NCBI GenBank assembly: GCA_902587125.1
Contig: CACIJW010000006.1
Location: forward strand, 4,529-68,528
Source: an uncultured Bacteroidota bacterium
GTDB taxonomy: Bacteria; Bacteroidota; Bacteroidia; Flavobacteriales; BACL11
Length of the DNA stretch: 64,000 nucleotides
Reading direction: 5' to 3'
Shown here: positions 43,910-60,958 of the stretch, piece by piece
Layout: each line of letters starts with the position of its first letter
How positions within the stretch are numbered: the stretch's first letter is position 1
The notes under the pieces: generated by a model
Database searches by the model: none
Told to the model about the DNA's origin: nothing
The model's input: the letters and a program-made list of their open reading frames with translations, nothing else
Position numbers and translations under genes: made by a program

Positions 43910-44464
43910 ATGGTTAGCGATAAAATAATTTTAGGTATTGATCCTGGGACAATTGTAATGGGCTACGGACTAGTACACATAAAAAATAAAAAAATTGAGC
44001 TAATAAATTTTGGTATTATTAAACTTGCTCAATATCAATCTCATCAAGATAAACTGAAAAAAATTTTTGAAAGAATCACTGAGCTAATTACAGAATACAA
44101 ACCTGATGAAATTTCGATTGAAGCTCCTTTTTTTGGAAAGAATGTTCAATCAATGTTAAAACTGGGGAGGGCTCAAGGGGTTGCAATGGCTGCTGCACTT
44201 AATAAAAATATACCAGTTTTTGAATACAGCCCAAGAAAAATAAAAAAATCTATCACTGGAAAAGGGAATTCATCTAAAGATCAAGTTGCTGGAATGATTC
44301 AAAATCTTTTAAATATGAAAAGTAAACCAGAGAACCTTGATGCAACTGATGGACTAGCTGCAGCTTTATGTCACCATTTTCAACGCGATAACACAAATAA
44401 CAAAACTAACTATTCAAATTGGTCATCATTTGTTAAACAAAACAAAGATAAGATTAAACAGTAA
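43910..44464 (+). CDS. ruvC: Holliday junction resolvase RuvC
   Basis: ILGIDPG, E.PF, LGRAQG, ITGKG..SKDQV and DATDGLAAALCH motifs. Confidence 0.97.
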   Translation: MVSDKIILGIDPGTIVMGYGLVHIKNKKIELINFGIIKLAQYQSHQDKLKKIFERITELITEYKPDEISIEAPFFGKNVQSMLKLGRAQGVAMAAALNKNIPVFEYSPRKIKKSITGKGNSSKDQVAGMIQNLLNMKSKPENLDATDGLAAALCHHFQRDNTNNKTNYSNWSSFVKQNKDKIKQ

Positions 44465-44852
44465 ATTTTAACAATTGACAAATGTTAAGCATTTCTTCGT
44501 CAGTTAATTTTAAAGGAGATTTGTTGAAGTTCATATCCTCAAAAGAATTTATTGGTATTAAATGAATATGAGCATGAGGAACATCTAATCCAACAACTGA
44601 CATACCAATTTTGTCGCAAGTTATTTTTTTTTTCATATTAATAGCAACTCTTTTTGCAAAAGAAAATAAACTATTGTATGAATTTTCATTAAGACTAAAA
44701 ATGTTTTCAACTTGTAATTTTGGGACTATTAGTGTATGTCCTTTTCTTAAGGGTTTTATATCTAGAAAAGCAATGTTCTCCTTGTCCTCACAAACTATAT
44801 AAGAAGGTAATTCTCTATTTATTATTCTGGTAAATATTGAATGTGAACTCAA
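44454..44852 (-). CDS. HIT family nucleotide hydrolase
   Basis: SIFTRII, GHTLIVPK and VPHAHIHLIP (histidine triad). Confidence 0.93.
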   Translation of the reverse strand: MSSHSIFTRIINRELPSYIVCEDKENIAFLDIKPLRKGHTLIVPKLQVENIFSLNENSYNSLFSFAKRVAINMKKKITCDKIGMSVVGLDVPHAHIHLIPINSFEDMNFNKSPLKLTDEEMLNICQLLKFTV

Positions 44853-45322
44853 ATTGTAATATCTAATATCTTGAATTTGATAATTCCTGAAGGAACTGAT
44901 ATATCAACAATTTCACCAACTTTTTTTCCCATTAGTCCTTTTCCAATTGGTGAGCTTATTGAAATCTTCTTATTTTTCAAATCGGCTTCGGATTCTGAGA
45001 CTAAAGTGTAAGACATCTTTTGTTTTGATTGAGTATTTTCAATTTCGACTGTAGTTAAAAGTTTGGCAGTAGATAAATCAATATTTTTTTCGTCTAATAC
45101 TCTTGATTTTGACAACTCATTTTCTAGCCTGGCAATTCTTGCCTCGAGTAATCCTTGGGCTTCTTTCGCAGCATCATACTCTGCATTCTCGGACAAATCT
45201 CCTTTGTCTCTAGCTTCAGCAATTTGATTTATTATTTTTGGACGCTCAATGCTTTTAAGATTATTGAGCTCATCTTTTAATTTTTCCATTCCCTCTTTTG
45301 AGAGATAAATAAAGCTACTCAT
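44849..45322 (-). CDS. greA: Transcription elongation factor GreA
   Basis: ARDKGDLSENAEYDAAKE and SPIGKGL motifs. Confidence 0.97.
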   Translation of the reverse strand: MSSFIYLSKEGMEKLKDELNNLKSIERPKIINQIAEARDKGDLSENAEYDAAKEAQGLLEARIARLENELSKSRVLDEKNIDLSTAKLLTTVEIENTQSKQKMSYTLVSESEADLKNKKISISSPIGKGLMGKKVGEIVDISVPSGIIKFKILDITI

Positions 45323-45326
45323 AATA

Positions 45327-46445
45327 TTATAAATTTATTCTTGCTCCTATACTATGCGATCCCTGAAAAGGATTAGTATGTCTGTAAGAATAATCTAAAC
45401 CAAAAGTTGAGCCATTACCCATAGGTAGTTCAAGTGTAAATCCTGCGGAAGGACCTCTCAGAGCAGTTGTTCTATAGCTATCTAGTGAATTTTCTTCAGC
45501 AGCTTTTTTGCTATTCATAATTCCGTCCTCCGCAACATAACCACCTCTTAGCATTAAAATTTCTTTGTAAGAATACTCAACACCAAGCCTATATTGATCT
45601 TTTTGAAAAGAATTAGAAGTAAATGTTCCTGCAGTTGTTACTCTATGTAAATTTACATTGACATCGTAAGATGCTCCAATATTTAAAAGAGCAGGAAGCT
45701 CAAACTCTGATGATCTTTGCTCTACAGTCATTTCGTAATTTGGATCGACATAATTTCTGAATGATAAACCATCTCCAGAAAATGACATTCTTGGACCAAC
45801 ATTCTTTAATGAAATACCAAATTTAAGATTATCCTTTTTTCCTGTCACATACTGTATTCCAGCATCTAGTGCTATGCCCTGGGCAGCTAGATTAGATATC
45901 TGCTCAGAAACCAATTTGACTGTAACACCGCCGTATATGCTATTTGAAAATATCCTTGCATAAGAAAACCCTAGGTTTAAATATTTTGGTGAAAAAGTTC
46001 CAATTCCACCATCAGGCAACTCGACTGTTGTAATTTCAATTTCACCGAAGTCCATAGACATAACTGACATTCCTAAGACTCCTGATTCTCCTACTTTTTG
46101 AGAAAAACCAAATGAACTTATGTTACTAACGGATTCATTAGCATCAAACATTTTACTTCCGTATTGAAGCCAAGATGTCTGTGAAAAGATTAATTCAGTT
46201 TTTTCTGTAAATGCTAGACCTGCAACATTAGAATAAATACCTTCTAAACCCCTAACTCCTGCAACGTTAGCGGTTCCCCATCCTGAAGATCTTGACCATG
46301 GATTTATTAATAACTCAGATGCACCAGCCTGTCCTGATCTTTGTTCATTACCAGCGTATATGTTAGAAGAATAGAAAATCTCAGCTAAAATTACAGTAAG
46401 AACTATAAAGCTTTTAAGTATTATATTTTTATTTAATTTCTTCAT
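45327..46445 (-). CDS. PorV/PorQ-family (FadL-like) outer-membrane barrel
   Basis: Signal peptide; N-term GASELLINPWSRSSGWG and NVAGLA hatch motifs; DAG.QY...FGISLKNVG; LRGGY. Confidence 0.8.
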   Translation of the reverse strand: MKKLNKNIILKSFIVLTVILAEIFYSSNIYAGNEQRSGQAGASELLINPWSRSSGWGTANVAGVRGLEGIYSNVAGLAFTEKTELIFSQTSWLQYGSKMFDANESVSNISSFGFSQKVGESGVLGMSVMSMDFGEIEITTVELPDGGIGTFSPKYLNLGFSYARIFSNSIYGGVTVKLVSEQISNLAAQGIALDAGIQYVTGKKDNLKFGISLKNVGPRMSFSGDGLSFRNYVDPNYEMTVEQRSSEFELPALLNIGASYDVNVNLHRVTTAGTFTSNSFQKDQYRLGVEYSYKEILMLRGGYVAEDGIMNSKKAAEENSLDSYRTTALRGPSAGFTLELPMGNGSTFGLDYSYRHTNPFQGSHSIGARINL

Positions 46446-46455
46446 AATCTTCTTT

Positions 46456-49400
46456 TTAGAATGTGTCTAAGTCAATTGGTCTAAGTGCACCAAACCATTT
46501 AAGTACTTTTTCTCCTTCATTTGTTTTCACATGTATTACGTATAATCCACTAGCAATTGGAATACCGTAATCATTTTTTAAATCCCAATCTATCGAGCTA
46601 ATGCTAGAATCATCTTTTTTGAGTGTTCTAACTAGTGTTCCACTTAATGTAAAAATTGAAATGGTTGCTTTTTGAGGAAGATTGGTTATTTTTATTCTAT
46701 TGTCCAACTGATTTGTTTCATATTCTGAATAACCATAATATGGGTTTGGAACTACATTAATCATGTCGATTGATGATCTTGCAACAGAGTTATTACCTAT
46801 TTCAGCTACTATATCATCAGTTGAAAATCTATATATTGGATTAAAATTATTTGATGATTCTCCCTCAACAACTCTAGCACGTGAATTTCCTGTAAATGAA
46901 GTTGTAGTTGCAATGAAAGACTCTCCAGGCTTATAAGTTGTTCCATTATGTGTAATATTAAATCCTCCCCATGTAGTTTGATCATTTTTAAAAGTTACAA
47001 CATAATTGGTTCCAACTATCAAATCATCATCCTTTGATAGAAATCTTGAAGGATCAACAGATTCAAATTGTTTATAAGGCTTGGATACTCTTAGCTTCAC
47101 TCTTGCGTCAGTGGTGAGTAAATTTCTTCCAGGAGCTAATAAGGGAACTGATGTCCAGGTAACATGCTTAAAAACGTTAAACTGAGCAGGTAAACCCCCA
47201 TCGCTTAGTTGTGCATACGCCCATGCTCCCTCATCATAGTTTGGACAATTGTCAACCTCTAAATAATCTCCACTTATATAATCTTCTGTCCCTTTTACCC
47301 ACGACTCCCCTCTTAAAATGTATATAAAGTGCTTACCGCCAAGCAAGTAATTTCCACCTGAAAATTGTTGACCTTGAGGAGCAGTAGGGTCATACTGTGG
47401 AAAATCACTAGTGACGATGTTGGATGTAGGGTTCCATATCATATCATTTCCATTTTCGTTAGTCAGCCATGAATCTTCAGCAAAAATTATATTCAATCTT
47501 TCACCTGTTTGTACGTCAATGGCATATCCAGGGAACCAACCCATACCAACTCCAGACTCCGGATTACCGTCTTTATCAACAGAAGGACTTTGTCTAAGTC
47601 CCATTTTAATTTGACCTCCGATTGATAATGTTGGATCATCTTGTGCTTCAACAACTGGACATCTTGTCCATAAGTCTTTATTTTGAGTAAATACAACATC
47701 AACTGAGTTTAATTTATCAATTTTTACATACGAATTAGTGACGGTATTATTAAAGCCAGGACCATCATTAAAATTAGATGCAAACCTGTAAGGAGCCCAA
47801 GTTCCTCCAGTTACGTCAATAGAGAAATTACCAAAACCGACGGTAACAGATTTTTCGATTACAGTTTCAAAAACACCATTAGGGTCATCTGTTTGATTGT
47901 AATCGCTCAAAGAAGCATCATTATCATTTGTGAACGAACCAGCTCTGATCCAATTAAGCCCCCACAGACTGAAGAAAGCTGACTCATCATCCCTGTCTGG
48001 AACACCAGAAAGCCACCTGTCATTAGGGTCATCATAATCAACTGAGCCAGAGATAAGACCATTACTATTAATATTGTTAGGATCTGCACCAGGGTTACTT
48101 GATTGTTTAATTTTAAAACTTAGACCAAGTTCATCAATGAACTGATTATCACCAATAGTGATTGACTTTTCTGAGCTAGAAATAATCTCTCCATTGTCAT
48201 CCTCCAAAGTCCATCCATAATAACTTTCAACAAAGTTTTGATTTGAAACTTGTGGACTATCTAACTTTAAAACATAAGTACCTGCAACAACACTTACTGG
48301 ATCAACTACAGTAATTTCAATTGGTCCACTACCTGCTTCGTATTCAATCTCCGAGGATCTATAGTCGATTCCATTTAAGATTGCATTTTCAGAATTTTGT
48401 GTCATAATTAATTCCAAACCTCCATTTCCTTGACCCTCCACTCTTGTAATTTTTACTCCATCACCATAGCTTGAGTTTAGTTGAGTACCTCCACCATCAG
48501 GGCTAATATTGTGTGGAATGGCTGAGTAAACCTTAATATTTCTTCTGCCTCCAATGTAGGGTTGATTTCTTCCATCATAATTTGGATCATTTACATTATA
48601 TGGATCAGCATTTTCTTCCGCTTGGTTGTAACCATATGCAATACTCATAAAATAATATGTTTTATGATTAACTAGCTTCGTGCTACCTAGTGCAAACTTA
48701 TCATCTAAAATCTGAAATGAGTACTCTGTACCTTCATCGACTGAACCAATAACTCCTTGACTTAAAACTGATGAGACCTCTTCAACTGGAGTAAATACTC
48801 CTAATACCGGATCTAAGTATTGATTAATTATTCCAGTAACTCCATCTTTTACATCTGATCGATAAACAAGCCTTGCTTTGTCAGGGTTATCTAAGTCAGT
48901 AACTGAGACTGTTGCATCAACTAACTGATAAACTAAATATCCTTGAAACTCGTAATTAGGACTATTTAATAAATTATCAGGTTTTGTTATGTAAGGATCT
49001 TTTTCAGAATATGATTCTTCATAATTATTAGAAGTAACTTTATTGGACAAAGTAATTATTAATTCTTGGTCTAACTCCCTGATCTCTAGGTCTGGGGCAT
49101 CTGGTCCATTTAATATGTTGAAATTATTATCGAACAAAGCTTGAGCTTCTTTATCATAAATTTTAACAAGTTGCACCGACGCAGTTTGTCCACCTGTGTT
49201 AGCTCTAGCCCATACAACACCTGTAGTAATTTCATTTACTGCTCCAGGTTGCAAAGTAAAGGGACCAGCAGATTGTAAAAATCTTCTGTCAGCAGGAGTA
49301 TTACCTGCAGTTACTTCAGTCCACTCTTGTCCTGGAAAGTCAGGATCTGATGTACCTGGGAACATAAAATTACAGAGGTCTGTTGTAGATCCTTGTCCGC

Positions 49401-50652
49401 TTCCGTGACCATCTCCACCATATGTCATTGGAACATTGTCTTTCCAAATTCCTCTTAAGTAATTATAAATATGTGTACCGGTGGAAGGATTTCCTGTAAC
49501 AGTAAAGTCATTGTTATAGTAGACGAATTTTGACATTATAATTTGCTCTCCATATTCATCTACGGTACCATCTCTATCATTATCTATTCCATCATTTGGA
49601 TCAGCTAATGGTCCTTGGAAAAAGTCAACTCCTATTGCTGGAGGATTAAAACCGTAGCCTGCAGCTCCTTCATCTTCAGCATCTCCGTTATAGCAAAAGC
49701 CAAGCCCTAAACCTACATCACATCCTACGTAATCATCAAGATAATATCCTAAATCTGGATCTACCCACTGACCAAAATATGTGTCTAAAAGTGGAAGAGT
49801 AGACCTGTTAATAATTTTGTAATTGTAGAAAGTCATATCATTGACTTCATTGTCAGCAGTAAAACCAAATGCTTGAGCATGAATTTCAAGACCTAAAGCC
49901 TCAGCTTCAGATTCTGTATGTATATTTCCTTTGTCATTAAAAATCCAAAAAAGAGTTTGATCTCCATATAATTTAGAATCATCATTTGTTCCTGTCACAT
50001 TGTAATCAGGATAGTCACCAGCAAGAGGATTATAGTTCCCATCGCCATTTCTGTCGTAAAAAGGTGCCAAGTAATAATCTTGACCTTGTGACACATCACC
50101 ATGAGCTGGCCATTCTAAAACTGATTCAGGAATGTCACTTTGGTTGATTGCTCCATTGGAATTATCGTAATCAGAAACGAATTGCTCTACCTCAGTTCTG
50201 TTGATTTTAAAATGCTTATCCCATTCTTCACATTCCTCAGGTGATATAGTTGCAGTATTAACATCAAGAGGACCAGGCCAAAAGTCATTACCTCCTTGCC
50301 TATATGTCATAGCTGCCACTTTTAATTGACCCCCAGCATCAACACCACCAATCCATAAAGCACCAGCAAACATTGAATGTTTATTTCCATCTTTTGGAAT
50401 TTCATATCTTGCATCATCTAAATTCCACCACATATCTCCTCCGCCCATGATAGTTGTCCTAACATTATTAACATCTAAGTCTGTTTGTGAAGTGGAGGGT
50501 GTACATCCAGCTGCAACTCTTTCGTTTTTGACATTAGAAATACCAGGATAATTAATATTTTCTTTAGCTGAAACATAAACTGAAATGAGTAAGGCTAAAA
50601 GGGTAATTTTTATTTTCTCAATTTTAATCATATGTGTATTATTCAATTTCAT
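46456..50652 (-). CDS. Large acidic secreted protein with FlgD-Ig/T9SS-like C-terminal domain
   Basis: Signal peptide; LDVNNVR..., FAGALWIGG, DFWPGP; Dx(D/N)xDG loops; C-term VVPNPY...ITNLP...IFTLSGTLVRTL...WDLKN...IASGLYVIHV. Confidence 0.82.
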   Translation of the reverse strand: MKLNNTHMIKIEKIKITLLALLISVYVSAKENINYPGISNVKNERVAAGCTPSTSQTDLDVNNVRTTIMGGGDMWWNLDDARYEIPKDGNKHSMFAGALWIGGVDAGGQLKVAAMTYRQGGNDFWPGPLDVNTATISPEECEEWDKHFKINRTEVEQFVSDYDNSNGAINQSDIPESVLEWPAHGDVSQGQDYYLAPFYDRNGDGNYNPLAGDYPDYNVTGTNDDSKLYGDQTLFWIFNDKGNIHTESEAEALGLEIHAQAFGFTADNEVNDMTFYNYKIINRSTLPLLDTYFGQWVDPDLGYYLDDYVGCDVGLGLGFCYNGDAEDEGAAGYGFNPPAIGVDFFQGPLADPNDGIDNDRDGTVDEYGEQIIMSKFVYYNNDFTVTGNPSTGTHIYNYLRGIWKDNVPMTYGGDGHGSGQGSTTDLCNFMFPGTSDPDFPGQEWTEVTAGNTPADRRFLQSAGPFTLQPGAVNEITTGVVWARANTGGQTASVQLVKIYDKEAQALFDNNFNILNGPDAPDLEIRELDQELIITLSNKVTSNNYEESYSEKDPYITKPDNLLNSPNYEFQGYLVYQLVDATVSVTDLDNPDKARLVYRSDVKDGVTGIINQYLDPVLGVFTPVEEVSSVLSQGVIGSVDEGTEYSFQILDDKFALGSTKLVNHKTYYFMSIAYGYNQAEENADPYNVNDPNYDGRNQPYIGGRRNIKVYSAIPHNISPDGGGTQLNSSYGDGVKITRVEGQGNGGLELIMTQNSENAILNGIDYRSSEIEYEAGSGPIEITVVDPVSVVAGTYVLKLDSPQVSNQNFVESYYGWTLEDDNGEIISSSEKSITIGDNQFIDELGLSFKIKQSSNPGADPNNINSNGLISGSVDYDDPNDRWLSGVPDRDDESAFFSLWGLNWIRAGSFTNDNDASLSDYNQTDDPNGVFETVIEKSVTVGFGNFSIDVTGGTWAPYRFASNFNDGPGFNNTVTNSYVKIDKLNSVDVVFTQNKDLWTRCPVVEAQDDPTLSIGGQIKMGLRQSPSVDKDGNPESGVGMGWFPGYAIDVQTGERLNIIFAEDSWLTNENGNDMIWNPTSNIVTSDFPQYDPTAPQGQQFSGGNYLLGGKHFIYILRGESWVKGTEDYISGDYLEVDNCPNYDEGAWAYAQLSDGGLPAQFNVFKHVTWTSVPLLAPGRNLLTTDARVKLRVSKPYKQFESVDPSRFLSKDDDLIVGTNYVVTFKNDQTTWGGFNITHNGTTYKPGESFIATTTSFTGNSRARVVEGESSNNFNPIYRFSTDDIVAEIGNNSVARSSIDMINVVPNPYYGYSEYETNQLDNRIKITNLPQKATISIFTLSGTLVRTLKKDDSSISSIDWDLKNDYGIPIASGLYVIHVKTNEGEKVLKWFGALRPIDLDTF

Positions 50653-50657
50653 TTTGT

Positions 50658-53600
50658 TTAAAAATCTATACTAATTCCAGCTCTCCACATTCTTGGTAAA
50701 CTATAATTTGAAGGATTATTTACAGCCAAAGAGTAAAGATATCTGAAAGAATCAGGATCGTTTTTTGAGTTTATTGAATTTTGTGCTGCTGCATCAGTCA
50801 AATATCCATCGTCGTCTGGGTTTCCGGTAGCTCTATATACACTGATAACATTTTTTGCATCAAGTAAATTTTGAACTTGAACATAAACATTAAGATTTGA
50901 TTTCTTCTTGTCAGTCCAATTAATAACAAAGTTTTTATTTAATTTCATACTCAATCTAAACTGCCACGGTAATCTTGATCCATTTAAACTTCCTTCTAGA
51001 GTAGAGCGATCATTTATTCCGGATGCAGCTTCTTGTGTAATATTAGATTGTTTTGAATATGGTGTTCCAGAACCAGCTGTCATAATAATGTTAGCTCCTG
51101 CATCTTGTAAAATTTTCCTGCCGAATAAAATTGGACCATTATATTTCTTGCCTGTTCCATAGCTGTAATCAACAGAAGCCATTAATGAATGTCTCTGATC
51201 AAAGCTAAGAGGAATAGTTGTTCTCAAATTTGGCTGTCCAGTATTTACTAAACTTTGCCCTGAAGTTGCAGATGATCCAGTACCATCAGCAAATTGTAAT
51301 GTGTAATTTGCAGTCATACTGACGTTGCTGGTTCTTCTCAAGTCATAATTAATTGACATTCCTTTAACCGTTCCAAAATCAATATTTCCATAAGTAAGAT
51401 ATTGAGCTGGATATGCTCCAAGAGTATTAATTACCTGTATCATATCTCTCATTTCTTTGTAGAAAGCTGATATTTTCAAAGCTGAACTCAGAGATAATGT
51501 CTTTGCAAAACCAAGCTCATAATCTATTGTCTTCTCAGGCTTTAAATCTGGATTATTTAGTAAAGCTCCAACCTTATCAGCCATGAACAGATAATCAACT
51601 GGCTCTAATCGATTATTACTTGGTGGTCTTTGTGTCAAAACATCGTAATGAGCAAAAAATTGAGCTTCATCAGATATTGGGAATGAGAAAGCTATTCTAG
51701 GCATGAAAACAATCTCCGGCTCATAATCTTTGAAAGATTCACTTACACTTATATCATTATTTAATGCATTTTGATCTTGCAAATACGGTGCAATTTTACC
51801 TCCTGCTGCATCTGCTAATATTGTTGGATCTGAAATTTGTAATCCTTCGGCATTATACCAGGTTTCTCCATTTCTATATCCAACTGCAGTAGGTGAATTT
51901 GAAGAAAAGTCATCGACATAAACTACATAATCATTGCCAATTGTTGATGGTAATCCTCCTGCTCTATCGGCGGCTTCGCTCCCCTGAATAGTACCTGCTG
52001 TATAAGTTGGATATAATACATACCTGTCTTTCAAGACTTGCTGATTAGCATCATACCGATCAACTCTTAATCCAATGTTAAATATTAAATCTTCTACAGC
52101 AAACTTATCTTGAATATATCCAGCCATGTATACAGGCTCAAAAGGGGCTATTTCTCTAGAGTAGCGAACATCATCAAATTGGTCTGTCTCGTCTCCAGTA
52201 AAGAAATCTTGAAGTGACGGTTTATTGTCTAACTTGTTTCCATAAATATCGAAACCATAATAATACACAAGATTACTTCCATTGTTTAATAACTCGTCTT
52301 GGCTAAACATACTAATGTCAAAAGTACTTGGGTCATACGAATCTATGTCTATATACTCTAATCCGTCAATACTGATATTAAGAGCATCCCTCAAACTTTT
52401 ATCAAAGGTTGAATGAATTTCAGAGTTATAAAGTCTATTATAGTTGATTGTATCATTGAAAATACCGTTTTGATTAAATCCAGGTATTGGATTACTTAAG
52501 TCTCTTTCAAGAATGTGATTATTAGCTAACTGCCTACCCAATGTCCATAGTGATCTTGGACTTGAACCCCAATAATAATCTTGTCTTTGCTCAAACTCAA
52601 ATCCAAATGAAACTTCATGAGAGCCTATATCTGCCGATCCTGAGGCTTTGAAGGTAGTTTGAGTATTTTCTTGCTTTGCTGCACCGTTGTAGTAATATCC
52701 ATGATTACCGAACAATGAGTAAACTGATGTTGGTAATTCACCATTAAGCAGACCTTGACCTTGCAAATCAGCAGCTGTTCTAATTATACCATCATTTGAA
52801 CTACCAACATATGATGATAATCCATAGTCCCTGAACATTCTGTAGTAAGCTGATGTGTAATTAACCAGATTAGTGTTGTAGTCTCCTGCACTGAAAGTCA
52901 TTAAAGTATCTTGCCATCCATTATGAACTTGAACATTATTCCACCAAACTGGATTACCATTAATTGTATCCAATACATCACCAGTATTATAAACTCTTGT
53001 TTTATACGTGTTAAATGTTCCAACATAGCCATATTTAAATAAATCAAATTGATGATCAGAATCTACAAATGTGTATTTGTTGTTGGTGTAGTCTCCTTGA
53101 ATTGTTATAAATGCATTTTTTACCGTCGAAGCACTATTTTCATCATTTGATTCTTCAGAGCCAAACTTTTGAGTTAACTTTCCAAATAATCTGAAAGTAT
53201 TTTGTGATGACTCTCTGTTATTGTCCCAGGCGAACATGGATCTCCAATAAGAAAAGTCTCTACTTTTTCTATAATAGTAGCTACCTCCCAAAGTTAAAAA
53301 AGTGTTGTTTGATGGTTTGAAATCTAATTTTCCAGACACATTCAGTCTTCTTTGATTTGTGTTTAGCTTGGCTTGAACATTTTCAAAGTCTGATTCACTC
53401 AAAAAGTCAGAGGTACTCAGAAAACCGGCTGCAGCATTGGGTGCTATCACAAACGGATTGTTTCTTAGGTTGTTTAAAACATTATCTTTTACTTTCCAAA
53501 CTCCAACTGCTGAGGGGTCTGTATCATCAACACTTCTAAGTTCTCCAGAGATAAAGTAACCTAGAATTGAGCTTCCTTTAGTTCCGTCTGAATTTCTTTT

Positions 53601-54374
53601 TTTTATTATCGGACCCGATAGAGCAAATCCTAAAAGATTGTAATCATATTCATCGAACAAGTCAGAGGATTCAAACTCTAATTGCCCAAAAAACTTATTG
53701 GAGGGACCTTTAGTTGTAACAGAAATAACACCACCTGTTGCATCACCATATTGTGCAGGGACACCACCAGTTACAACTTTAATTTGTTCAATTCCAGATG
53801 TTGGAACACCAAGAGCTCCCCTAACCTTAATTCCATCTATGTAATACTCTGTGGCATCGGAACGAGATCCCCTTATGTTTACAGCATCACCTTCATCTCT
53901 TTGATAAATTCCTGCAGTTGTTGCAGCTACTGAAGCCACAGACCTTGTTGGCAATGCGACAATTTCTTCGGAGGTTTTAGTTTCTCCAGATAAATTTCCT
54001 TGGTCAATTAAAGGCTTTGTCCATACGACAACCTCGGCGACTTCTAACTGTATTCCTTCTTGTAATTTAATATCAACGAATCTAATTTGATCAGCTGAAA
54101 TAACAACTCCGGTAATTTCTTTTGTTTGATAACCAACAAACGTTGCTTTTATGTTATAAGTACCAGGGTCTATTGGTTTAATAGTATATTTTCCATCAAA
54201 ATCAGTAGTTGTTCCAGCAGATTGATTTCCATTTTTTGTCAAAACGACGTTTGCAAATGGTATTGGTTCATTGGTCATGGCATCTATAATTGTACCTTGT
54301 AACGTACCTGTTTGAGCAAAGGATAAAGTACTATATAAAACAAAAGCTAAATACAAAAGAGTCTTTCTAAGCAT
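50658..54374 (-). CDS. Large TonB-dependent-type transporter (Oar-like) with carboxypeptidase-regulatory-like N-domain
   Basis: TTTDFDGKY...PGTY; plug NIRGSR..YYIDG...TGGVPAQYGDATGGVI; PRIAFSFPI; NPDLKPEKT; terminal Phe. Confidence 0.9.
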   Translation of the reverse strand: MLRKTLLYLAFVLYSTLSFAQTGTLQGTIIDAMTNEPIPFANVVLTKNGNQSAGTTTDFDGKYTIKPIDPGTYNIKATFVGYQTKEITGVVISADQIRFVDIKLQEGIQLEVAEVVVWTKPLIDQGNLSGETKTSEEIVALPTRSVASVAATTAGIYQRDEGDAVNIRGSRSDATEYYIDGIKVRGALGVPTSGIEQIKVVTGGVPAQYGDATGGVISVTTKGPSNKFFGQLEFESSDLFDEYDYNLLGFALSGPIIKKRNSDGTKGSSILGYFISGELRSVDDTDPSAVGVWKVKDNVLNNLRNNPFVIAPNAAAGFLSTSDFLSESDFENVQAKLNTNQRRLNVSGKLDFKPSNNTFLTLGGSYYYRKSRDFSYWRSMFAWDNNRESSQNTFRLFGKLTQKFGSEESNDENSASTVKNAFITIQGDYTNNKYTFVDSDHQFDLFKYGYVGTFNTYKTRVYNTGDVLDTINGNPVWWNNVQVHNGWQDTLMTFSAGDYNTNLVNYTSAYYRMFRDYGLSSYVGSSNDGIIRTAADLQGQGLLNGELPTSVYSLFGNHGYYYNGAAKQENTQTTFKASGSADIGSHEVSFGFEFEQRQDYYWGSSPRSLWTLGRQLANNHILERDLSNPIPGFNQNGIFNDTINYNRLYNSEIHSTFDKSLRDALNISIDGLEYIDIDSYDPSTFDISMFSQDELLNNGSNLVYYYGFDIYGNKLDNKPSLQDFFTGDETDQFDDVRYSREIAPFEPVYMAGYIQDKFAVEDLIFNIGLRVDRYDANQQVLKDRYVLYPTYTAGTIQGSEAADRAGGLPSTIGNDYVVYVDDFSSNSPTAVGYRNGETWYNAEGLQISDPTILADAAGGKIAPYLQDQNALNNDISVSESFKDYEPEIVFMPRIAFSFPISDEAQFFAHYDVLTQRPPSNNRLEPVDYLFMADKVGALLNNPDLKPEKTIDYELGFAKTLSLSSALKISAFYKEMRDMIQVINTLGAYPAQYLTYGNIDFGTVKGMSINYDLRRTSNVSMTANYTLQFADGTGSSATSGQSLVNTGQPNLRTTIPLSFDQRHSLMASVDYSYGTGKKYNGPILFGRKILQDAGANIIMTAGSGTPYSKQSNITQEAASGINDRSTLEGSLNGSRLPWQFRLSMKLNKNFVINWTDKKKSNLNVYVQVQNLLDAKNVISVYRATGNPDDDGYLTDAAAQNSINSKNDPDSFRYLYSLAVNNPSNYSLPRMWRAGISIDF

Positions 54375-54467: not shown

Positions 54468-54881
54468 ATGAGATATAGTTTACACATTATTTTTTTGATT
54501 TTTTTTATCTCATGTGGAGAAAGAAACAATTATATTCCTGACGTCTTTATAAATCATGAGATTGACTTAAATTCTCCAGAAAATATTTCTTTAAGCGCAC
54601 TTGGTGGTAGTTTAATTATAGAAAATCATGGCTACAATGGCCTAATTATCTACAGATTTTCAAATTATGAATATCATGCATATGATAAAAGTTGTACATA
54701 TGAGCCATTGACGTCTTGTGCAGAAATAGACTCAATAAATTCATCGCTAGCTATTTGTAGCTGTTGTAACTCAGTTTTTTTACTAGACCAAGACGGGTCT
54801 GTCGCAAATGGCCCTGCAATTTTACCTTTAAAAAAATACTCAACATTTTTAGAAGGTAATATGCTGTTTATATCAAATTAA
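54468..54881 (+). CDS. Rieske-like fold lipoprotein lacking His ligands
   Basis: Lipobox FFISC; AYDKSCTY...[14 protein letters not shown]...GPA..PLKKY. Confidence 0.7.
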
Positions 54882-56799: not shown

Positions 56800-57531
56800 A
56801 TGAAAATAATTGAGCAAATAAGAAATTCCAAAAAAAACAATAAAAAAATTATATCTATACTAATTGATCCCGATAAAACCACAGAAGATAAACTTACCTC
56901 AACAATAAAATTATGTAATTCAAATAAAATAGACTTGATTTTTTTTGGAGGAAGCTTAATTAACTCAACAACATCTGAACATTATCTTCGCCTAATCAAA
57001 AAAAATAGTAAAATACCTGTTGTTTTATTTCCCGGGACCAATACCAAAATTAGCAATATAGCTGATGGATTTCTTCTTCTTTCCCTAATCTCAGGACGAA
57101 ATCCGAATTTTTTGATTGGAAAACATGTTGAACAAGCTTTCAAACTAAAAAATTCATCTTTAGAACTAATATCTACAGGATACATACTGGTTGGAAATGA
57201 AAAAAATACTGCTGTTTCTTACATTAGTAACACTAGTCCAATTCCTTCTGAACAGCATGATATTGGAGTTGCAACTGCAATAGCAGGAGAGTTACTGGGG
57301 TTTCAATTAATTTATTTAGAAGCGGGAAGTGGATCAAAGAACTGCGTAAATGAAAATATGATTCTTAATGTTTCAAAAAATATTGATTGCCCCTTAATTG
57401 TTGGTGGCGGGTTAAATACTATTGAAAAAATAGAAATCGCATTTGAAAACGGAGCTGACATAGTAGTTATTGGAAACGCAGTTGAGAAAAATCAAAAAAT
57501 TTTAAATCAAATCGGAAAAATTAAAAAATAG
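56800..57531 (+). CDS. Geranylgeranylglyceryl/heptaprenylglyceryl phosphate synthase (group II GGGPS)
   Basis: LIDPDK, GGS, LFPG, SLISGRNP, YLEAGSG, IVGGG and VVIGN motifs. Confidence 0.92.
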   Translation: MKIIEQIRNSKKNNKKIISILIDPDKTTEDKLTSTIKLCNSNKIDLIFFGGSLINSTTSEHYLRLIKKNSKIPVVLFPGTNTKISNIADGFLLLSLISGRNPNFLIGKHVEQAFKLKNSSLELISTGYILVGNEKNTAVSYISNTSPIPSEQHDIGVATAIAGELLGFQLIYLEAGSGSKNCVNENMILNVSKNIDCPLIVGGGLNTIEKIEIAFENGADIVVIGNAVEKNQKILNQIGKIKK

Positions 57532-58118
57532 TGATAGAGCAAATTGAATTGATTGCAGTGACTCTAAGTATCATTTACGTGATACTGGCAAGTAGAGAAA
57601 ATCATAACTGTTGGTATTTTGGAATTCTAAGTGTATCTATCTACATTTACATATGTCTTGATGCATTATTATACGCTGAAACCTTATTGCAAATTGTTTA
57701 TCTGTTTTTATCATTTTATGGGCTGTATAATTGGAAAAAAAAATCTATTGTCAATGAACCACTAGAAAATACTAAAGTTCTCAAATTAAAAATTTCTGAG
57801 TGGCCTTTAAAAAAACACTTCACATATATTTCAATTTTTACAATATTGAGTTTTTCAATTGGCATATTACTCAATTCTTTCACAAAATCTGAGCTTCCAT
57901 TTATTGATGCATTTACAACATCCTTTAGCTTACTAGCAACTTACATGACAGTAAAAAAGGTTTTAGAAAATTGGCTATATTGGATTATAATTGATCTAAC
58001 ATCTGTATTTTTATACCATGAAAGAGATCTTCATTTGACAGCTTTTCTTTTTATTGTTTACACTGTCATTGCAACCTTCGCTTACTTCAACTGGAAGAGT
58101 AAATCATCTAATGCCTAG
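57531..58118 (+). CDS. pnuC: PnuC-family vitamin transporter
   Basis: Multi-TM protein; YGLYNW, PFIDAFTT and LENWLYWIIID (WxxWxxxD) motifs. Confidence 0.9.
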   Translation: MIEQIELIAVTLSIIYVILASRENHNCWYFGILSVSIYIYICLDALLYAETLLQIVYLFLSFYGLYNWKKKSIVNEPLENTKVLKLKISEWPLKKHFTYISIFTILSFSIGILLNSFTKSELPFIDAFTTSFSLLATYMTVKKVLENWLYWIIIDLTSVFLYHERDLHLTAFLFIVYTVIATFAYFNWKSKSSNA

Positions 58119-58632
58119 AAAGCTAATTTTAGTTGGTCCTGAGAGCACTGGAAAAACAACATTGTCTAACTATCTTGCAAAGCTTTATAATTTTGATTTA
58201 ATTACAGAATATTCTAGAATATACCTATCAAAAAAAAGAAACTATTACGTCTATGAAGACTTAAAAAAAATTGCTATTAAACAAAATCAAATTGAGAAAA
58301 ATAACAGCTCTGAAAAAATTATTATGGATACCGACCTTCTTACAATAAAAATATGGAGTGAGTTCAAGTATGGTTCATGCGATCCTGAAATTGAAAAAAT
58401 AATTTCAAGTTATGACAGAAACAAAAGGTATTATTTATTGCTTAAAGATGATATTAAATGGGAATACGACCAATTGAGAGAGAGCAAGAACGACAGATCT
58501 GAAATTTTTTCGCTACATAAAAATCTTCTTCAAAAAAAAGGTTTTAGTTATAGTATAATTAGTGGCATCGCTGATAATAGAATTAATAACGCAATTAAAG
58601 TAGTTGAAGAAAGATTTTTATCTAAAAATTAA
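58111..58632 (+). CDS. NadR-type (AAA_28) P-loop kinase, stand-alone
   Basis: Start moved to MPRK; GPESTGKTTL, EYSRIY, DTDLL and W..D.LRE motifs. Confidence 0.85.
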   Translation: MPRKLILVGPESTGKTTLSNYLAKLYNFDLITEYSRIYLSKKRNYYVYEDLKKIAIKQNQIEKNNSSEKIIMDTDLLTIKIWSEFKYGSCDPEIEKIISSYDRNKRYYLLLKDDIKWEYDQLRESKNDRSEIFSLHKNLLQKKGFSYSIISGIADNRINNAIKVVEERFLSKN

Positions 58633-58633
58633 T

Positions 58634-58641
58634 TAATTTTG
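58634..58641 (+). promoter_or_regulatory. Bacteroidota -7 promoter element for the riboswitch leader
   Basis: TAATTTTG lies 3 nt before riboswitch P1. Confidence 0.6.
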
Positions 58642-58644
58642 AAA

Positions 58645-58718
58645 TGTTATTGGGGTGCCATTGTGCTGAGATTATACCCATTGAACCTGACATGGTAATT
58701 CATGTAAGGAAAATGACA
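58645..58718 (+). ncRNA. TPP (THI-box) riboswitch, variant form
   Basis: P1 TGTTATT/AATGACA; GGGGTGC...GCTGAGA...ATACCC..TGAACCTGA; P5 CATG/CATG with GTAATT loop; ends AGGAA. Confidence 0.85.
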
Positions 58719-58756
58719 AAATCAACTCCCCTATTTATTTTTTAAATTAGATATAC

Positions 58757-60958
58757 ATGAGAATATTTACAATTGCGGTATTGTTTTTAGTTAGTAACAT
58801 AAATTATGCCCAAATCCAAAATGATACAATTAAATTAAATCGTTTGCTGAAAGAGCTTGAAATAAATGCATCTCTAGCAGACAAAAAAACCCCTATTTCT
58901 TTTACAAACATCAAAAAAATTGAAATTGACAAAATTAATTTTGGAAAAGACATTCCATATGTAATAGAAAACACTCCCTCGATTGTAAGCTCATCAGATG
59001 CTGGTACAGGCATCGGTTATACAAATTTCAGATTAAGAGGAAGTGATCAAACAAGAATAAATGTTACCATAAACGGTATCCCAATAAATGACTCTGAAAG
59101 TCAGGGTGTTTGGTGGGTAAATATGCCTGATTTAGTTAGCTCAGTTGACGAAATACAAATTCAAAGAGGAGTAGGAACTTCAACAAACGGAGCTTCAGCC
59201 TTTGGTGGAACAATTAATTTAAAAACAAACACAATTAACCCATTACCATATTTTAACTCAAGAAATACAATTGGATCCTTTAATACTTTTAAAAGAAGTG
59301 CAAGCTTTGGAACTGGAAATATAAACGGGTTTTCTTTTGACGGTAGAATATCAAAAGTAAATTCTGACGGATATATTGATAGAGCTACAGCAGACTTGGA
59401 ATCCTATTATCTTTCTGCTAACTATGTTGGAGATGATGAAATCATTAACATTATAAACTTTAAAGGTAATGAGGTTACTTATCAAGCATGGTACGGTGTG
59501 CCAAAAAATTATTTGGAAAATGATTCTTTAAGAACATATAATTATTACACTTACAAAAATGAAATTGATAACTACACTCAAGACCATTATCAACTACACT
59601 ACAAAAAGCAGCTAAATAGCGGCAGATATTTCAATTTTTCTGTTCACCATACTTTAGGTGCAGGCTACTACGAGCAGGAAAAATTAAATGAAAGTTTATC
59701 AGACTACGGCTTATCAGATTTATATTTTGAAAATGATACTGTTTCAACTACTAATTTGGTCAGAAGAAAGTGGCTAGACAATGATTTTACTGGTGCTATA
59801 TATTCCTTTGAGAACTCATTAGATAAAGCTAAATTAATTTTAGGTGGTAGTTATAATATTTACAGAGGAAAACATTTTGGAAATGTAATCTGGTCTCAAT
59901 TTATGTCTGATGGTTCATATCCACACAGATACTACAACAATAAATCTACAAAAACAGATAATAATGTATATGCAAAAATCAATTATGAATTTAATCAAAG
60001 TGTAAGCATGTTTGTCGACGTTCAATCAAGAAATATTTCATATGATTTTGAAGGCTATGACGAGGATAATACATCATTAACAAACCTTAATCAAAAGCTT
60101 AATTTTTTGAATCCCAAGATTGGGATCAACTTTGATAACAATGATAAAAGAACTTATTTATATTTTGGAAAAGCAGAGAAAGAGCCTAGCAGAAATGACT
60201 ATGTTGACAGTGAATATAATAATTACCCAAAAAGTGAAAAACTTTACAATGTTGAACTTGGACATGAAATCAAAAACTCTGCTTCGATGATTTCTATCAA
60301 CGGATATTTTATGTACTACGAAGATCAACTCGTTAATACTGGTAAACTGAATGATGTAGGTGCATACATAAGAACAAATGTAGATGAATCCTACAGAACT
60401 GGAGTTGAAATTTCTGCTATATCTAATTTTGGAAATGGATTTCTTTTTAATGGGTCATTATCAATCAGTGACAACAAAATTACTAGATATGATGAATATG
60501 TCGACAATTGGGATCCACCATATGAACAAACTATTGTTACTCATGAAAATGTAGATTTAGCATTTTCTCCAAACATCATATATTCTTCAACATTTGAAAA
60601 AATATTTAATAATGGAATAGAAATCGCATTAAACTCAAAATATGTTGGTGAGCAATTTATTGACAACACCTCATCAGATGAAAGAAAATTAGATGATTAT
60701 TTTGTAAACAACTTGATTTTAAGTTACAATATCAATTTTTTTAATTTTTCTAATTCAAAAATTACATTAATTGTTAACAATATTTTTGATGAACTGTATG
60801 CAAATAACGCATGGACTTACAGATACTATTCTGAGGGTTATGACCCAAGAGCTGATGACCCCTACACAAATTTAAATAGTGATAATAGTTATAGTATGAG
60901 TGCTTACTTCCCACAAGCTGGTAGAAATTACATGTTGAGTTTGAATATTGGACTTTAA
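58757..60958 (+). CDS. TonB-dependent receptor, probable thiamine or thiamine-precursor importer
   Basis: SDAGTGIGY..RLRGSD..RINVTINGIP.ND.ES and QIQRGVGTSTNG..AFGG plug motifs; C-term FPQAGRN; preceded by a TPP-type riboswitch. Confidence 0.9.
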   Translation: MRIFTIAVLFLVSNINYAQIQNDTIKLNRLLKELEINASLADKKTPISFTNIKKIEIDKINFGKDIPYVIENTPSIVSSSDAGTGIGYTNFRLRGSDQTRINVTINGIPINDSESQGVWWVNMPDLVSSVDEIQIQRGVGTSTNGASAFGGTINLKTNTINPLPYFNSRNTIGSFNTFKRSASFGTGNINGFSFDGRISKVNSDGYIDRATADLESYYLSANYVGDDEIINIINFKGNEVTYQAWYGVPKNYLENDSLRTYNYYTYKNEIDNYTQDHYQLHYKKQLNSGRYFNFSVHHTLGAGYYEQEKLNESLSDYGLSDLYFENDTVSTTNLVRRKWLDNDFTGAIYSFENSLDKAKLILGGSYNIYRGKHFGNVIWSQFMSDGSYPHRYYNNKSTKTDNNVYAKINYEFNQSVSMFVDVQSRNISYDFEGYDEDNTSLTNLNQKLNFLNPKIGINFDNNDKRTYLYFGKAEKEPSRNDYVDSEYNNYPKSEKLYNVELGHEIKNSASMISINGYFMYYEDQLVNTGKLNDVGAYIRTNVDESYRTGVEISAISNFGNGFLFNGSLSISDNKITRYDEYVDNWDPPYEQTIVTHENVDLAFSPNIIYSSTFEKIFNNGIEIALNSKYVGEQFIDNTSSDERKLDDYFVNNLILSYNINFFNFSNSKITLIVNNIFDELYANNAWTYRYYSEGYDPRADDPYTNLNSDNSYSMSAYFPQAGRNYMLSLNIGL

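Follow-up and report, generated by a model that had tools for sequence, protein, structure and literature searches.

The 64,000-nucleotide stretch analyzed here, referred to as the window, belongs to contig CACIJW010000006.1 from an uncultured Bacteroidota bacterium and holds at positions 45327..54374 a trio of genes that may together form one outer-membrane uptake unit. All three lie on the minus strand and, read in that direction, encode a TonB-dependent transporter (TBDT) of 1238 amino acids (50658..54374), a large acidic secreted protein of 1398 amino acids (46456..50652), and a 14-strand-type barrel of the PorV/PorQ family with 372 amino acids (45327..46445). Gaps of 5 bp between the TBDT and large-protein genes and of 10 bp between the large-protein and barrel genes separate the three. 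The listing of open reading frames (ORFs) places the co-oriented genes and both gaps exactly where an earlier sequence-only reading of this DNA had claimed them.

The TBDT is a very large barrel protein with a signal peptide, and the Pfam scan defines an N-terminal CarboxypepD_reg domain (77.1 bits, residues 24–105), a Plug domain (PF07715, 43.1 bits compared with a cut-off of 23.9, residues 133–216), and a TonB_dep_Rec barrel (PF00593, 30.9 bits compared with a cut-off of 27, residues 536–1170), which by sequence match is of the 22-strand type. Between the N-terminal domain and the plug, in the usual place of a TonB box, residues 114–118 read EVVVW (54021..54035, minus strand), a motif that resembles the TonB-box consensus. 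The NCBIfam models for SusC/RagA give no match to the TBDT at E ≤ 0.01, and only fragments of PRK13483 and TonB_dep_CU appear, far under their cut-offs. The protein had been described as Oar-like, a description that is not established: the CarboxypepD_reg domain is present, but the Oar-type barrel (PF25183) is absent from its matches, although three TBDTs of the paralogous modules described below do match it.

The large protein (minus strand) has a signal peptide and a pI of 4.29, contains no HExxH motif, and is present as a single copy in the host genome. The first cysteine is residue 50, so there is no lipobox and the protein is not a lipoprotein. No Pfam family is matched over its cut-off and no catalytic family is found, with FlgD_ig falling below its own cut-off, and searches of PDB sequences with each of the three trio proteins return no match. 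The earlier description of an acidic protein with a signal peptide, a type IX secretion system (T9SS) sorting domain, and no catalytic family stands, apart from the FlgD-Ig assignment, which stays under the cut-off. DxDxDG-like motifs occur at residues 200 and 357.

The predicted model of residues 30–800 (m3fd708fa58c7; predicted local distance difference test (pLDDT) 89.2, predicted template modeling score 0.83) shows that about residues 50–510 (49123..50505) adopt a galactose-mutarotase-like β-supersandwich, which is followed by a β-rich region at about residues 511–800 (48253..49122) seen in the secondary structure of the model. The closest fold match of the N-terminal domain is dextran dextrinase (9ju0; Z 19.0, root mean square deviation (rmsd) 3.2, 252 residues aligned), and further matches are found to glucodextranase (1ulv, Z 18.5), bacterial glucoamylase (1lf6, Z 18.4), and enzymes of glycoside hydrolase families GH94, GH116, and GH65 (Z 16–18). 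The supersandwich fold occurs in glycoside hydrolases and phosphorylases, and every match covers the N-terminal sandwich of the enzyme and not its catalytic domain (model residues 21–483 aligned). Foldseek likewise matches the first half to glycoside hydrolase sandwich domains with low TM-scores (0.13–0.25) and the second half to PorZ and PorU, again with low TM-scores.

Directly C-terminal to the β-rich region lies a middle region of about residues 801–1289 (46786..48252), which is present in the host and in four regions from genomes of the same class and is missing in the shorter relatives elsewhere in the phylum. Alignment break points fall near residues 797–805, and the common core of the family ends near residues 750–800. 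The second model (m96e5f531404b, residues 795–1398) has a pLDDT of 84.6, and both models contain few helices. The middle region finds no match in three fold searches, but the lists were filled by the C-terminal sorting domain (CTD) and its fold has thus barely been probed. Its invariant residues include Phe-1040, Pro-1041, Gly-1042, Arg-1052, Glu-1059, Asp-1070, and His-1108. An explanation of the large protein as an unrecognized glycan-active or calcium-dependent hydrolase feeding the TBDT, with the supersandwich as an accessory domain as in GH15, GH65, and GH94, is very unlikely. A supersandwich does accompany a catalytic domain in all top structural matches, and the invariant residues from Phe-1040 to His-1108 lie in just the region that the fold searches barely cover; against this, the protein has no family or PDB sequence match, no (α/α)6 or other catalytic fold occurs among the structure matches, and relatives in other classes that have no middle region keep the trio.

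The last part of the large protein, about residues 1290–1398 (46459..46785), is a divergent type A CTD of the T9SS. It is matched by TIGR04183 (Por_Secre_tail) with 26.1 bits against a cut-off of 23 in the NCBIfam scan and with 29.9 bits in the genome scan, where it ranks 42nd of the 47 CTD matches over the cut-off; the CTD of PorU itself scores 20.3 bits in the same scan of the host genome. From the PorZ model only the C-terminal part matches the large protein (34.2 bits). The CTD forms a β-sandwich whose nearest fold is the PorZ CTD (Z 10.5, rmsd 2.3, 88 residues aligned, 22% identity), followed by the PorU CTD (Z 9.1), with cargo CTDs at Z 7.0–8.1 over 65–74 residues, a lead of PorZ and PorU that comes partly from the longer alignments. 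The CTDs of mirolase, RemA, NucA, and RgpB are also matched, and a profile search of PDB sequences finds the PorZ and PorU CTDs only, weakly (E 0.033 and 0.073). The VPNP motif (residues 1301–1304) and Lys-1385 are invariant. PorU and PorZ retain their CTDs, PorZ sitting on PorQ and PorU on PorV.

The barrel protein matches the PorV/PorQ family model NF033709 with 133 bits against a cut-off of 90 over positions 3–325 of 326. It remains below the cut-offs of the equivalog models for PorV (63.8 against 250), PorQ (57.3 against 220), and PorV2 (NF052325; 36.3 against 325) and also below those for PorP/SprF (TIGR03519, 17.8 against 90.55; PF11751, 20.5 against 22.3). In the host assembly (1.54 Mb in 36 contigs, 95.85% complete) a canonical PorV (490 bits) is encoded beside the PorU sortase (499 bits) on contig C3 and PorQ (235 bits) on contig C9, so that the trio barrel is a third paralogue, and these three are the only matches to the PorV family at E ≤ 0.001. 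The PorV family falls into four score classes in five related genomes, and a tree of 45 proteins resolves these as clades with high support in the Shimodaira–Hasegawa approximate likelihood ratio test (PorV 100, PorQ 97, trio barrels 100 with 26 rows, fourth clade 100), the deeper joins being weak with a support of 44. The trio barrel is therefore not the canonical PorV, in agreement with the earlier proposal of a dedicated paralogue.

The fourth clade (81–103 bits) has one copy in each of the five related genomes (loci L112–L116, genomes G001–G005) and may, as a guess, represent BamG of the Bacteroidota β-barrel assembly machinery (BAM) complex. BamG was also considered as an identity for the trio barrel and was set aside in view of the PorV/PorQ-family score of the trio barrel, its position next to a CTD protein, and the existence of the separate fourth clade. 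Bacteroides thetaiotaomicron, which is not known to have a T9SS, matches the PorV/PorQ family model over the cut-off and not the PorV equivalog, so that this model also takes in barrels whose roles lie outside the T9SS. A mention of a PorV/PorQ-family protein in B. thetaiotaomicron proteomics proved unrelated to the module.

A T9SS in the host genome is indicated by PorV, PorU, PorQ, and the 47 type A CTD matches over the cut-off. Fifteen proteins with a Plug domain are encoded, the trio TBDT being the largest, and the one SusD model used, SusD_RagB (PF07980), has no match in the assembly. At three further places (contigs C10:25174-26062, C1:198882-199740, and C15:18305-22470) other CTD proteins adjoin other Plug TBDT genes on the same strand, there with no PorV-family gene, and in this genome the placing of T9SS cargo next to TBDTs may be a more general pattern.

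The family of the large protein is extensive: one collection yields 7836 matches out of 8000 candidates scored, and a second yields 7844 representatives at E ≤ 0.001, the listed ones having no Pfam family. A scan of species genomes returned at least 707 loci encoding the large protein, of which the best 80 were kept. The TBDT gene lies directly upstream in 56 of these and the barrel gene directly downstream in 58, each on the same strand. Where DNA is available on both sides (62 loci) the order TBDT, large protein, barrel is found 53 times, neither partner nine times, and a single partner never; the 18 loci that end on a side show the TBDT only (3), the barrel only (5), a visible side with no partner (8), or no flank at all (2). 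In five of the nine genomes with neither partner, a large-protein C terminus, a barrel, greA, and a HIT-family gene occur together elsewhere in the genome, indicating that the partnerless loci there hold extra paralogues of the large protein. A tandem arrangement of large protein, barrel, large protein, barrel, greA, and HIT is present in one genome (L087/L090, G004, C26:80108-89847), its second barrel being much more divergent with 35–38% identity to the window barrel.

Across the phylum, the family profile was searched in 301 genomes, 132 of which match at E ≤ 1e-20. Full-length matches are found in the host genome and 11 genomes of the same class, and many genomes elsewhere in the phylum have relatives of about 1100 amino acids whose match takes in the N-terminal ~650 residues along with the CTD. 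In other classes the relatives match residues ~30–750 plus the CTD. PorV is present at E ≤ 1e-50 in 128 of the 132 positive genomes, the four exceptions being draft assemblies, a co-presence that is partly circular because the profile itself contains a CTD and weak matches (E about 1e-23) may be CTD-only. None of the 63 genomes of a family that has no PorV matches the profile. In 18 of 19 regions fetched phylum-wide the TBDT, large protein, and barrel follow in the same order; the remaining region (L133), a 12.7-kb contig, carries a tandem pair of large-protein genes but neither a TBDT nor a barrel. The four regions of the same class differ from the 14 from other classes of the phylum in having a longer TBDT (residues ~450–700) and a longer large protein (residues ~800–1270), a co-variation that reflects one split on the tree and so is not independent evidence of contact. 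With the size of the family and an order conserved in 53 of the 62 loci flanked on both sides and in 18 of the 19 regions, linkage of the trio is far beyond chance, and the co-occurrence that the earlier reading had mentioned for other genomes extends to Bacteroidia, Rhodothermia, and Ignavibacteriales. Exact look-up of the barrels returns the labels Rhodocaloribacter litoris, Rhodothermales, Rhodothermia, Ignavibacteriales, Sphingobacteriales, and Saprospiraceae, with annotations that read merely PorV/PorQ family protein or hypothetical. The ESM Atlas shows unnamed clusters only, one lower-scoring cluster (0.91) being labeled Fidelibacterota, which is a lead for the family beyond Bacteroidota.

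Five genomes of other classes contain 18, 16, 9, 20, and 25 matches to the PorV family, and in the one labeled R. litoris 14 further barrel loci were examined. Nine of these consist of a TBDT with a CarboxypepD_reg domain, a protein of 615–1285 amino acids with no Pfam family, and the barrel, one module being interrupted by a transposase. The others comprise PorV with PorU (one), a TBDT immediately preceding the barrel, the middle protein being absent (one, L153), and barrels with no TBDT (three: L154, L157, and L158). The CTD part of the family profile is matched by every one of the nine middle proteins (independent E values 1e-12 to 5e-26), and the N-terminal domain by four of them as well. 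The tails of these middle proteins have in common the VPNP motif, a stretch reading NLP..CTI.IYT, and the end GKFAIIK, whereas a generic cargo in the same R. litoris region has an ordinary tail. The paralogous modules neighbor genes for a glucoamylase-family domain, a TIG-domain protein, and an amidase. At L148:8961-11927 (G041) a frame of 989 amino acids joins a PorV-family barrel region to PF10091, a putative glucoamylase (298 bits), and is either a fusion or an artifact of ORF calling in high-GC DNA. In two Ignavibacteriales genomes, for which the comparison was limited to barrels of at least 121 bits, 6 of 10 and 9 of 13 barrels have the start of a CarboxypepD_reg-TBDT 2.3–6.5 kb upstream on the same strand.

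Loci of the same appearance are present in published work. The alginate locus of Rhodothermus marinus, which holds a TBDT together with hypA and hypB, includes a run of a TBDT, a T9SS protein, and a PorV/PorQ protein, the latter two left hypothetical (PMC9530828). In the xylan locus Rmar_1070 is a TBDT, Rmar_1071 a hypothetical protein with a Por sorting domain, and Rmar_1072 a hypothetical protein, these genes adjoining a classical SusC/SusD pair (PMC6987092). Neither paper treats the genes as a unit, and their likeness to the trio is one of annotation and gene order. A figure legend in a paper on Porphyromonas heme uptake lists T9SS and porV/Q genes in hmu-type clusters (PMC12106395). Full-text searches of the literature, covering main texts, found no description of a module of TBDT, CTD protein, and barrel, passages of two papers on BAM contain none either, and the terms PorV, T9SS, and type IX do not occur in a 2026 review of glycoside transporters; the view of the trio as not yet characterized is upheld to that extent.

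The docking of the CTD on the barrel was addressed by a complex prediction that combined the barrel, represented by 54 aligned orthologues, with the C-terminal 135 residues of the large protein. The pair scores 0.89 compared with 0.00 for the best of three controls, a mark attained in the benchmark by 116 of the 157 solved complexes and by 2 of the 215 mismatched pairs, figures that are approximate here, with author-built alignments used. At least 86% of the contacts are common to the runs, with a partner pLDDT of at least 72, and the predicted interface takes in the CTD VPNP motif and Lys-1385 together with barrel residues Gly-38, Gly-41, Leu-45, and Pro-144, all of them invariant. The sequence-only reading had the large protein held by this barrel, and the predicted interface is in line with it.

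That the three genes are functionally linked, that the barrel is a private paralogue, and that modules of TBDT, CTD protein, and barrel form a phylum-wide class are all strongly supported. For what the trio does, the explanation favored here, at somewhat better than even chances, is that of one outer-membrane uptake unit with the CTD docked on its own barrel beside the TBDT. The divergent CTD would dock on the PorV-family barrel encoded with it and would not be passed on for release, in a manner resembling PorZ on PorQ and PorU on PorV. The large protein would thereby be displayed at the cell surface beside the TBDT, where the galactose-mutarotase-like domain would capture a substrate, most likely a glycan, and the TBDT would import it using TonB energy. 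Such a unit would do the job of SusC and SusD with no lipoprotein. Stable docking in preference to shuttling is suggested by the presence of one barrel for each CTD protein, by a CTD of its own kind, and by the predicted interface, and the link to uptake is drawn from the TBDT itself, the utilization-locus contexts of the paralogous modules, and the glycan-handling fold. The proposal in the sequence-only reading of an architecture alternative to SusCD gains support from the R. marinus alginate and xylan loci and from 9 of the 14 R. litoris loci; contact of the large protein with the TBDT and its action as a lid would be further, putative parts of it. None of the refuting outcomes that the sequence-only reading had named was encountered within the reach of the analysis, and its interpretation is partly supported.

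The nearest rival holds that the barrel serves the large protein only as its own shuttle or helper in assembly during secretion, that cleavage of the CTD then leaves the protein free or linked to lipopolysaccharide, where it would bind or process a polymer by itself, and that the TBDT imports products with no complex being formed. The CTD is over the type A cut-off, and type A cargo is normally cleaved; gene linkage fits a common pathway as well as a complex, and contact with the TBDT is, in the favored explanation, an inferred step. PorV is moreover described as a shuttle in work cited by a BAM paper. Private shuttles would, however, not be needed at one per cargo in multi-copy genomes when the single canonical PorV of the host would serve about 47 CTD proteins, and the closest CTDs are the retained ones of PorZ and PorU. 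No catalytic domain was found among the family and fold matches. This rival is regarded as rather unlikely.

The surroundings of the trio bear on a further alternative. On the minus strand greA (44849..45322) begins 4 bp after the barrel gene and is followed with a 4-bp overlap by a HIT-family gene (44454..44852), an arrangement directly downstream that was overlooked in the earlier reading. On the other side an ORF of 137 amino acids with no Pfam match (54468..54881, plus strand) is divergent from the TBDT gene. Across the 80 loci greA is found in 52, HIT in 49, ruvC in 31, and the divergent small ORF in 28, where homologues of the 137-residue protein lie upstream of the TBDT. In the sample of 19 regions greA and HIT adjoin the trio only in the four of the same class and not in the 14 from other classes of the phylum, and a gene with a GWxTD domain (PF20094) lies directly downstream of the orthologous trio in four non-Bacteroidia loci (L125:12717-14249, L126, L139, and L142:12265-13626). 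greA and HIT are conserved same-strand neighbors and probably not functional parts of the trio. Among 18 flanking ORFs scanned no SusD, carbohydrate-active enzyme (CAZyme), or regulator was found, as the sequence-only reading had stated. Farther away at 56800-60958 (plus strand) are genes for a member of the PcrB family, a nicotinamide mononucleotide transporter of the PnuC type, an AAA_28 protein, and another TBDT (733 amino acids), which may form a small vitamin-salvage cluster.

With such neighbors the trio could be a surface-structure or envelope unit, for example an adhesin or surface-layer element that the barrel would anchor, in which the TBDT-like protein serves export or assembly instead of nutrient import; Oar of Myxococcus reportedly has a proposed role of this kind. 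The position among housekeeping genes, the synteny with greA and HIT across related loci, and the ancient single-copy conservation with no substrate-specific genes nearby are all compatible with this, as is BamG, a FadL/PorV-like barrel to which a surface protein is bound in the BAM complex of Bacteroidota. The TBDT, on the other hand, carries a Plug domain preceded by a TonB-box-like motif where one is usual, and paralogous modules occur within loci for alginate and xylan and next to a gene of the glucoamylase family. All 22 genomes examined from one family of the same order, which has a T9SS, are also without a match to the large-protein family, and this speaks against a core envelope role. 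An envelope function is considered quite unlikely.

The trio is represented in RNA libraries from the sea. Twenty RNA runs from 19 seawater or marine metagenome studies contain 26–43% of the sampled words of the window, and contigs of four RNA libraries (four seawater studies) cover the trio at 95 to over 99% identity. Single contigs span the junction between barrel and large protein in three runs and that between large protein and TBDT in two, and such contigs show presence and not a single transcript. In all four runs contig depth looks much lower over greA, HIT, and beyond than over the trio; no operon boundary is drawn from this because the runs were chosen by the trio and contig depth cannot rank genes. 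A scan for promoters and terminators is at background (56 compared with 47.5 expected and 4 compared with 4.9, respectively), the scan being ill-suited to Bacteroidota promoters.

Several points weigh against an uptake unit with a docked CTD. The supersandwich fold by itself shows no function, and 252 of about 460 residues of the predicted domain align. A type A CTD is normally cut by PorU, the cargo then being tied to lipopolysaccharide, and the closeness of this CTD to those of PorZ and PorU is in part a matter of alignment length (88 compared with 65–74 residues). The score of 0.89 for the CTD and barrel shows neither a preference for its own barrel over PorV nor retention of the CTD, and it may derive from likeness to the solved PorV–CTD complexes, of which 8gl6 and 8glk were matched. 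Both in the window and in other classes the orthologous trio sits among housekeeping genes with no adjoining CAZyme, regulator, or inner-membrane transporter. The same-order family with no match in any of its 22 genomes has PorV in all 22, so that the unit is dispensable, and the partial circularity of co-presence with PorV belongs here as well.

Within a wider class of modules, the window copy would be the one member that is single-copy and deeply conserved, the class being one that is multi-copy in Rhodothermia and Ignavibacteriales and there lies partly in polysaccharide utilization loci. A broader interpretation, tentative and given somewhat less than an even chance, is that the class represents a second ancient kind of uptake machine beside SusCD, in which a partner delivered by the T9SS would stay permanently on its own PorV-family barrel through an uncleaved CTD. 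The PorV family would on this interpretation provide, in addition to a secretion shuttle, general docking sockets, one per module in Rhodothermia and Ignavibacteriales, and one universal module would be left in Bacteroidia, including streamlined marine Flavobacteriales that have no SusD and would transcribe it in seawater.

TonB-dependent uptake with surface partners underlies polymer feeding by Bacteroidota in sea, soil, and gut, and the accepted picture rests on the lipoprotein partners SusD, RagB, and BtuG. If the uptake unit proposed here is correct, two signature outer-membrane systems of the phylum, TonB uptake and the T9SS, would be tied together and the 9–25 PorV-family genes of Rhodothermia and Ignavibacteriales genomes would be explained. 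The module would be a candidate for substrate capture in lineages with few or no SusD genes, including this 1.54-Mb genome with its 15 TBDTs, and a role would be assigned to very common hypothetical genes (the 7844 representatives and those in published utilization loci). It is directly testable in cultured Rhodothermus at the alginate locus.

Compared with SusC/SusD and RagA/RagB, the trio similarly combines a Bacteroidota TBDT bearing an N-terminal CarboxypepD_reg-type domain with a co-encoded partner that would be surface-exposed and non-catalytic, and its paralogous modules sit in polysaccharide utilization loci. The partner differs in being a non-lipoprotein of about 1400 amino acids that is not SusD-like and carries a T9SS CTD, and the trio differs in having a third gene for a PorV-family barrel and a TBDT outside the SusC/RagA models. 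The PorU–PorV and PorZ–PorQ pairs of Porphyromonas gingivalis provide the nearest CTD folds and the same pairing of a PorV/PorQ-family barrel with one CTD surface protein. The trio barrel, however, belongs to neither of these clades, its partner has no sortase or PorZ body, and the pair is always joined to a TBDT gene.

Three further systems share single elements with the trio. Cargo with type B CTDs and PorP/SprF-like barrels (PMC9143113) also has a dedicated co-encoded barrel per cargo for surface anchorage, whereas in the trio the CTD is type A and the barrel belongs to the PorV/PorQ family. In BamG–BamH (PMC12611786 and PMC12578637) a FadL/PorV-like 14-strand barrel holds a surface protein by its extracellular side; BamH is, in contrast, a lipoprotein, BamG binds BamA, and the system includes no TBDT and no CTD. 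In BtuB–BtuG, which takes up vitamin B12 (PMC10404256), a TBDT is stably capped by a surface protein that is not SusD-like, so that lids need not resemble SusD; BtuG differs from the large protein of the trio in being a lipoprotein that has neither a T9SS signal nor a third barrel.

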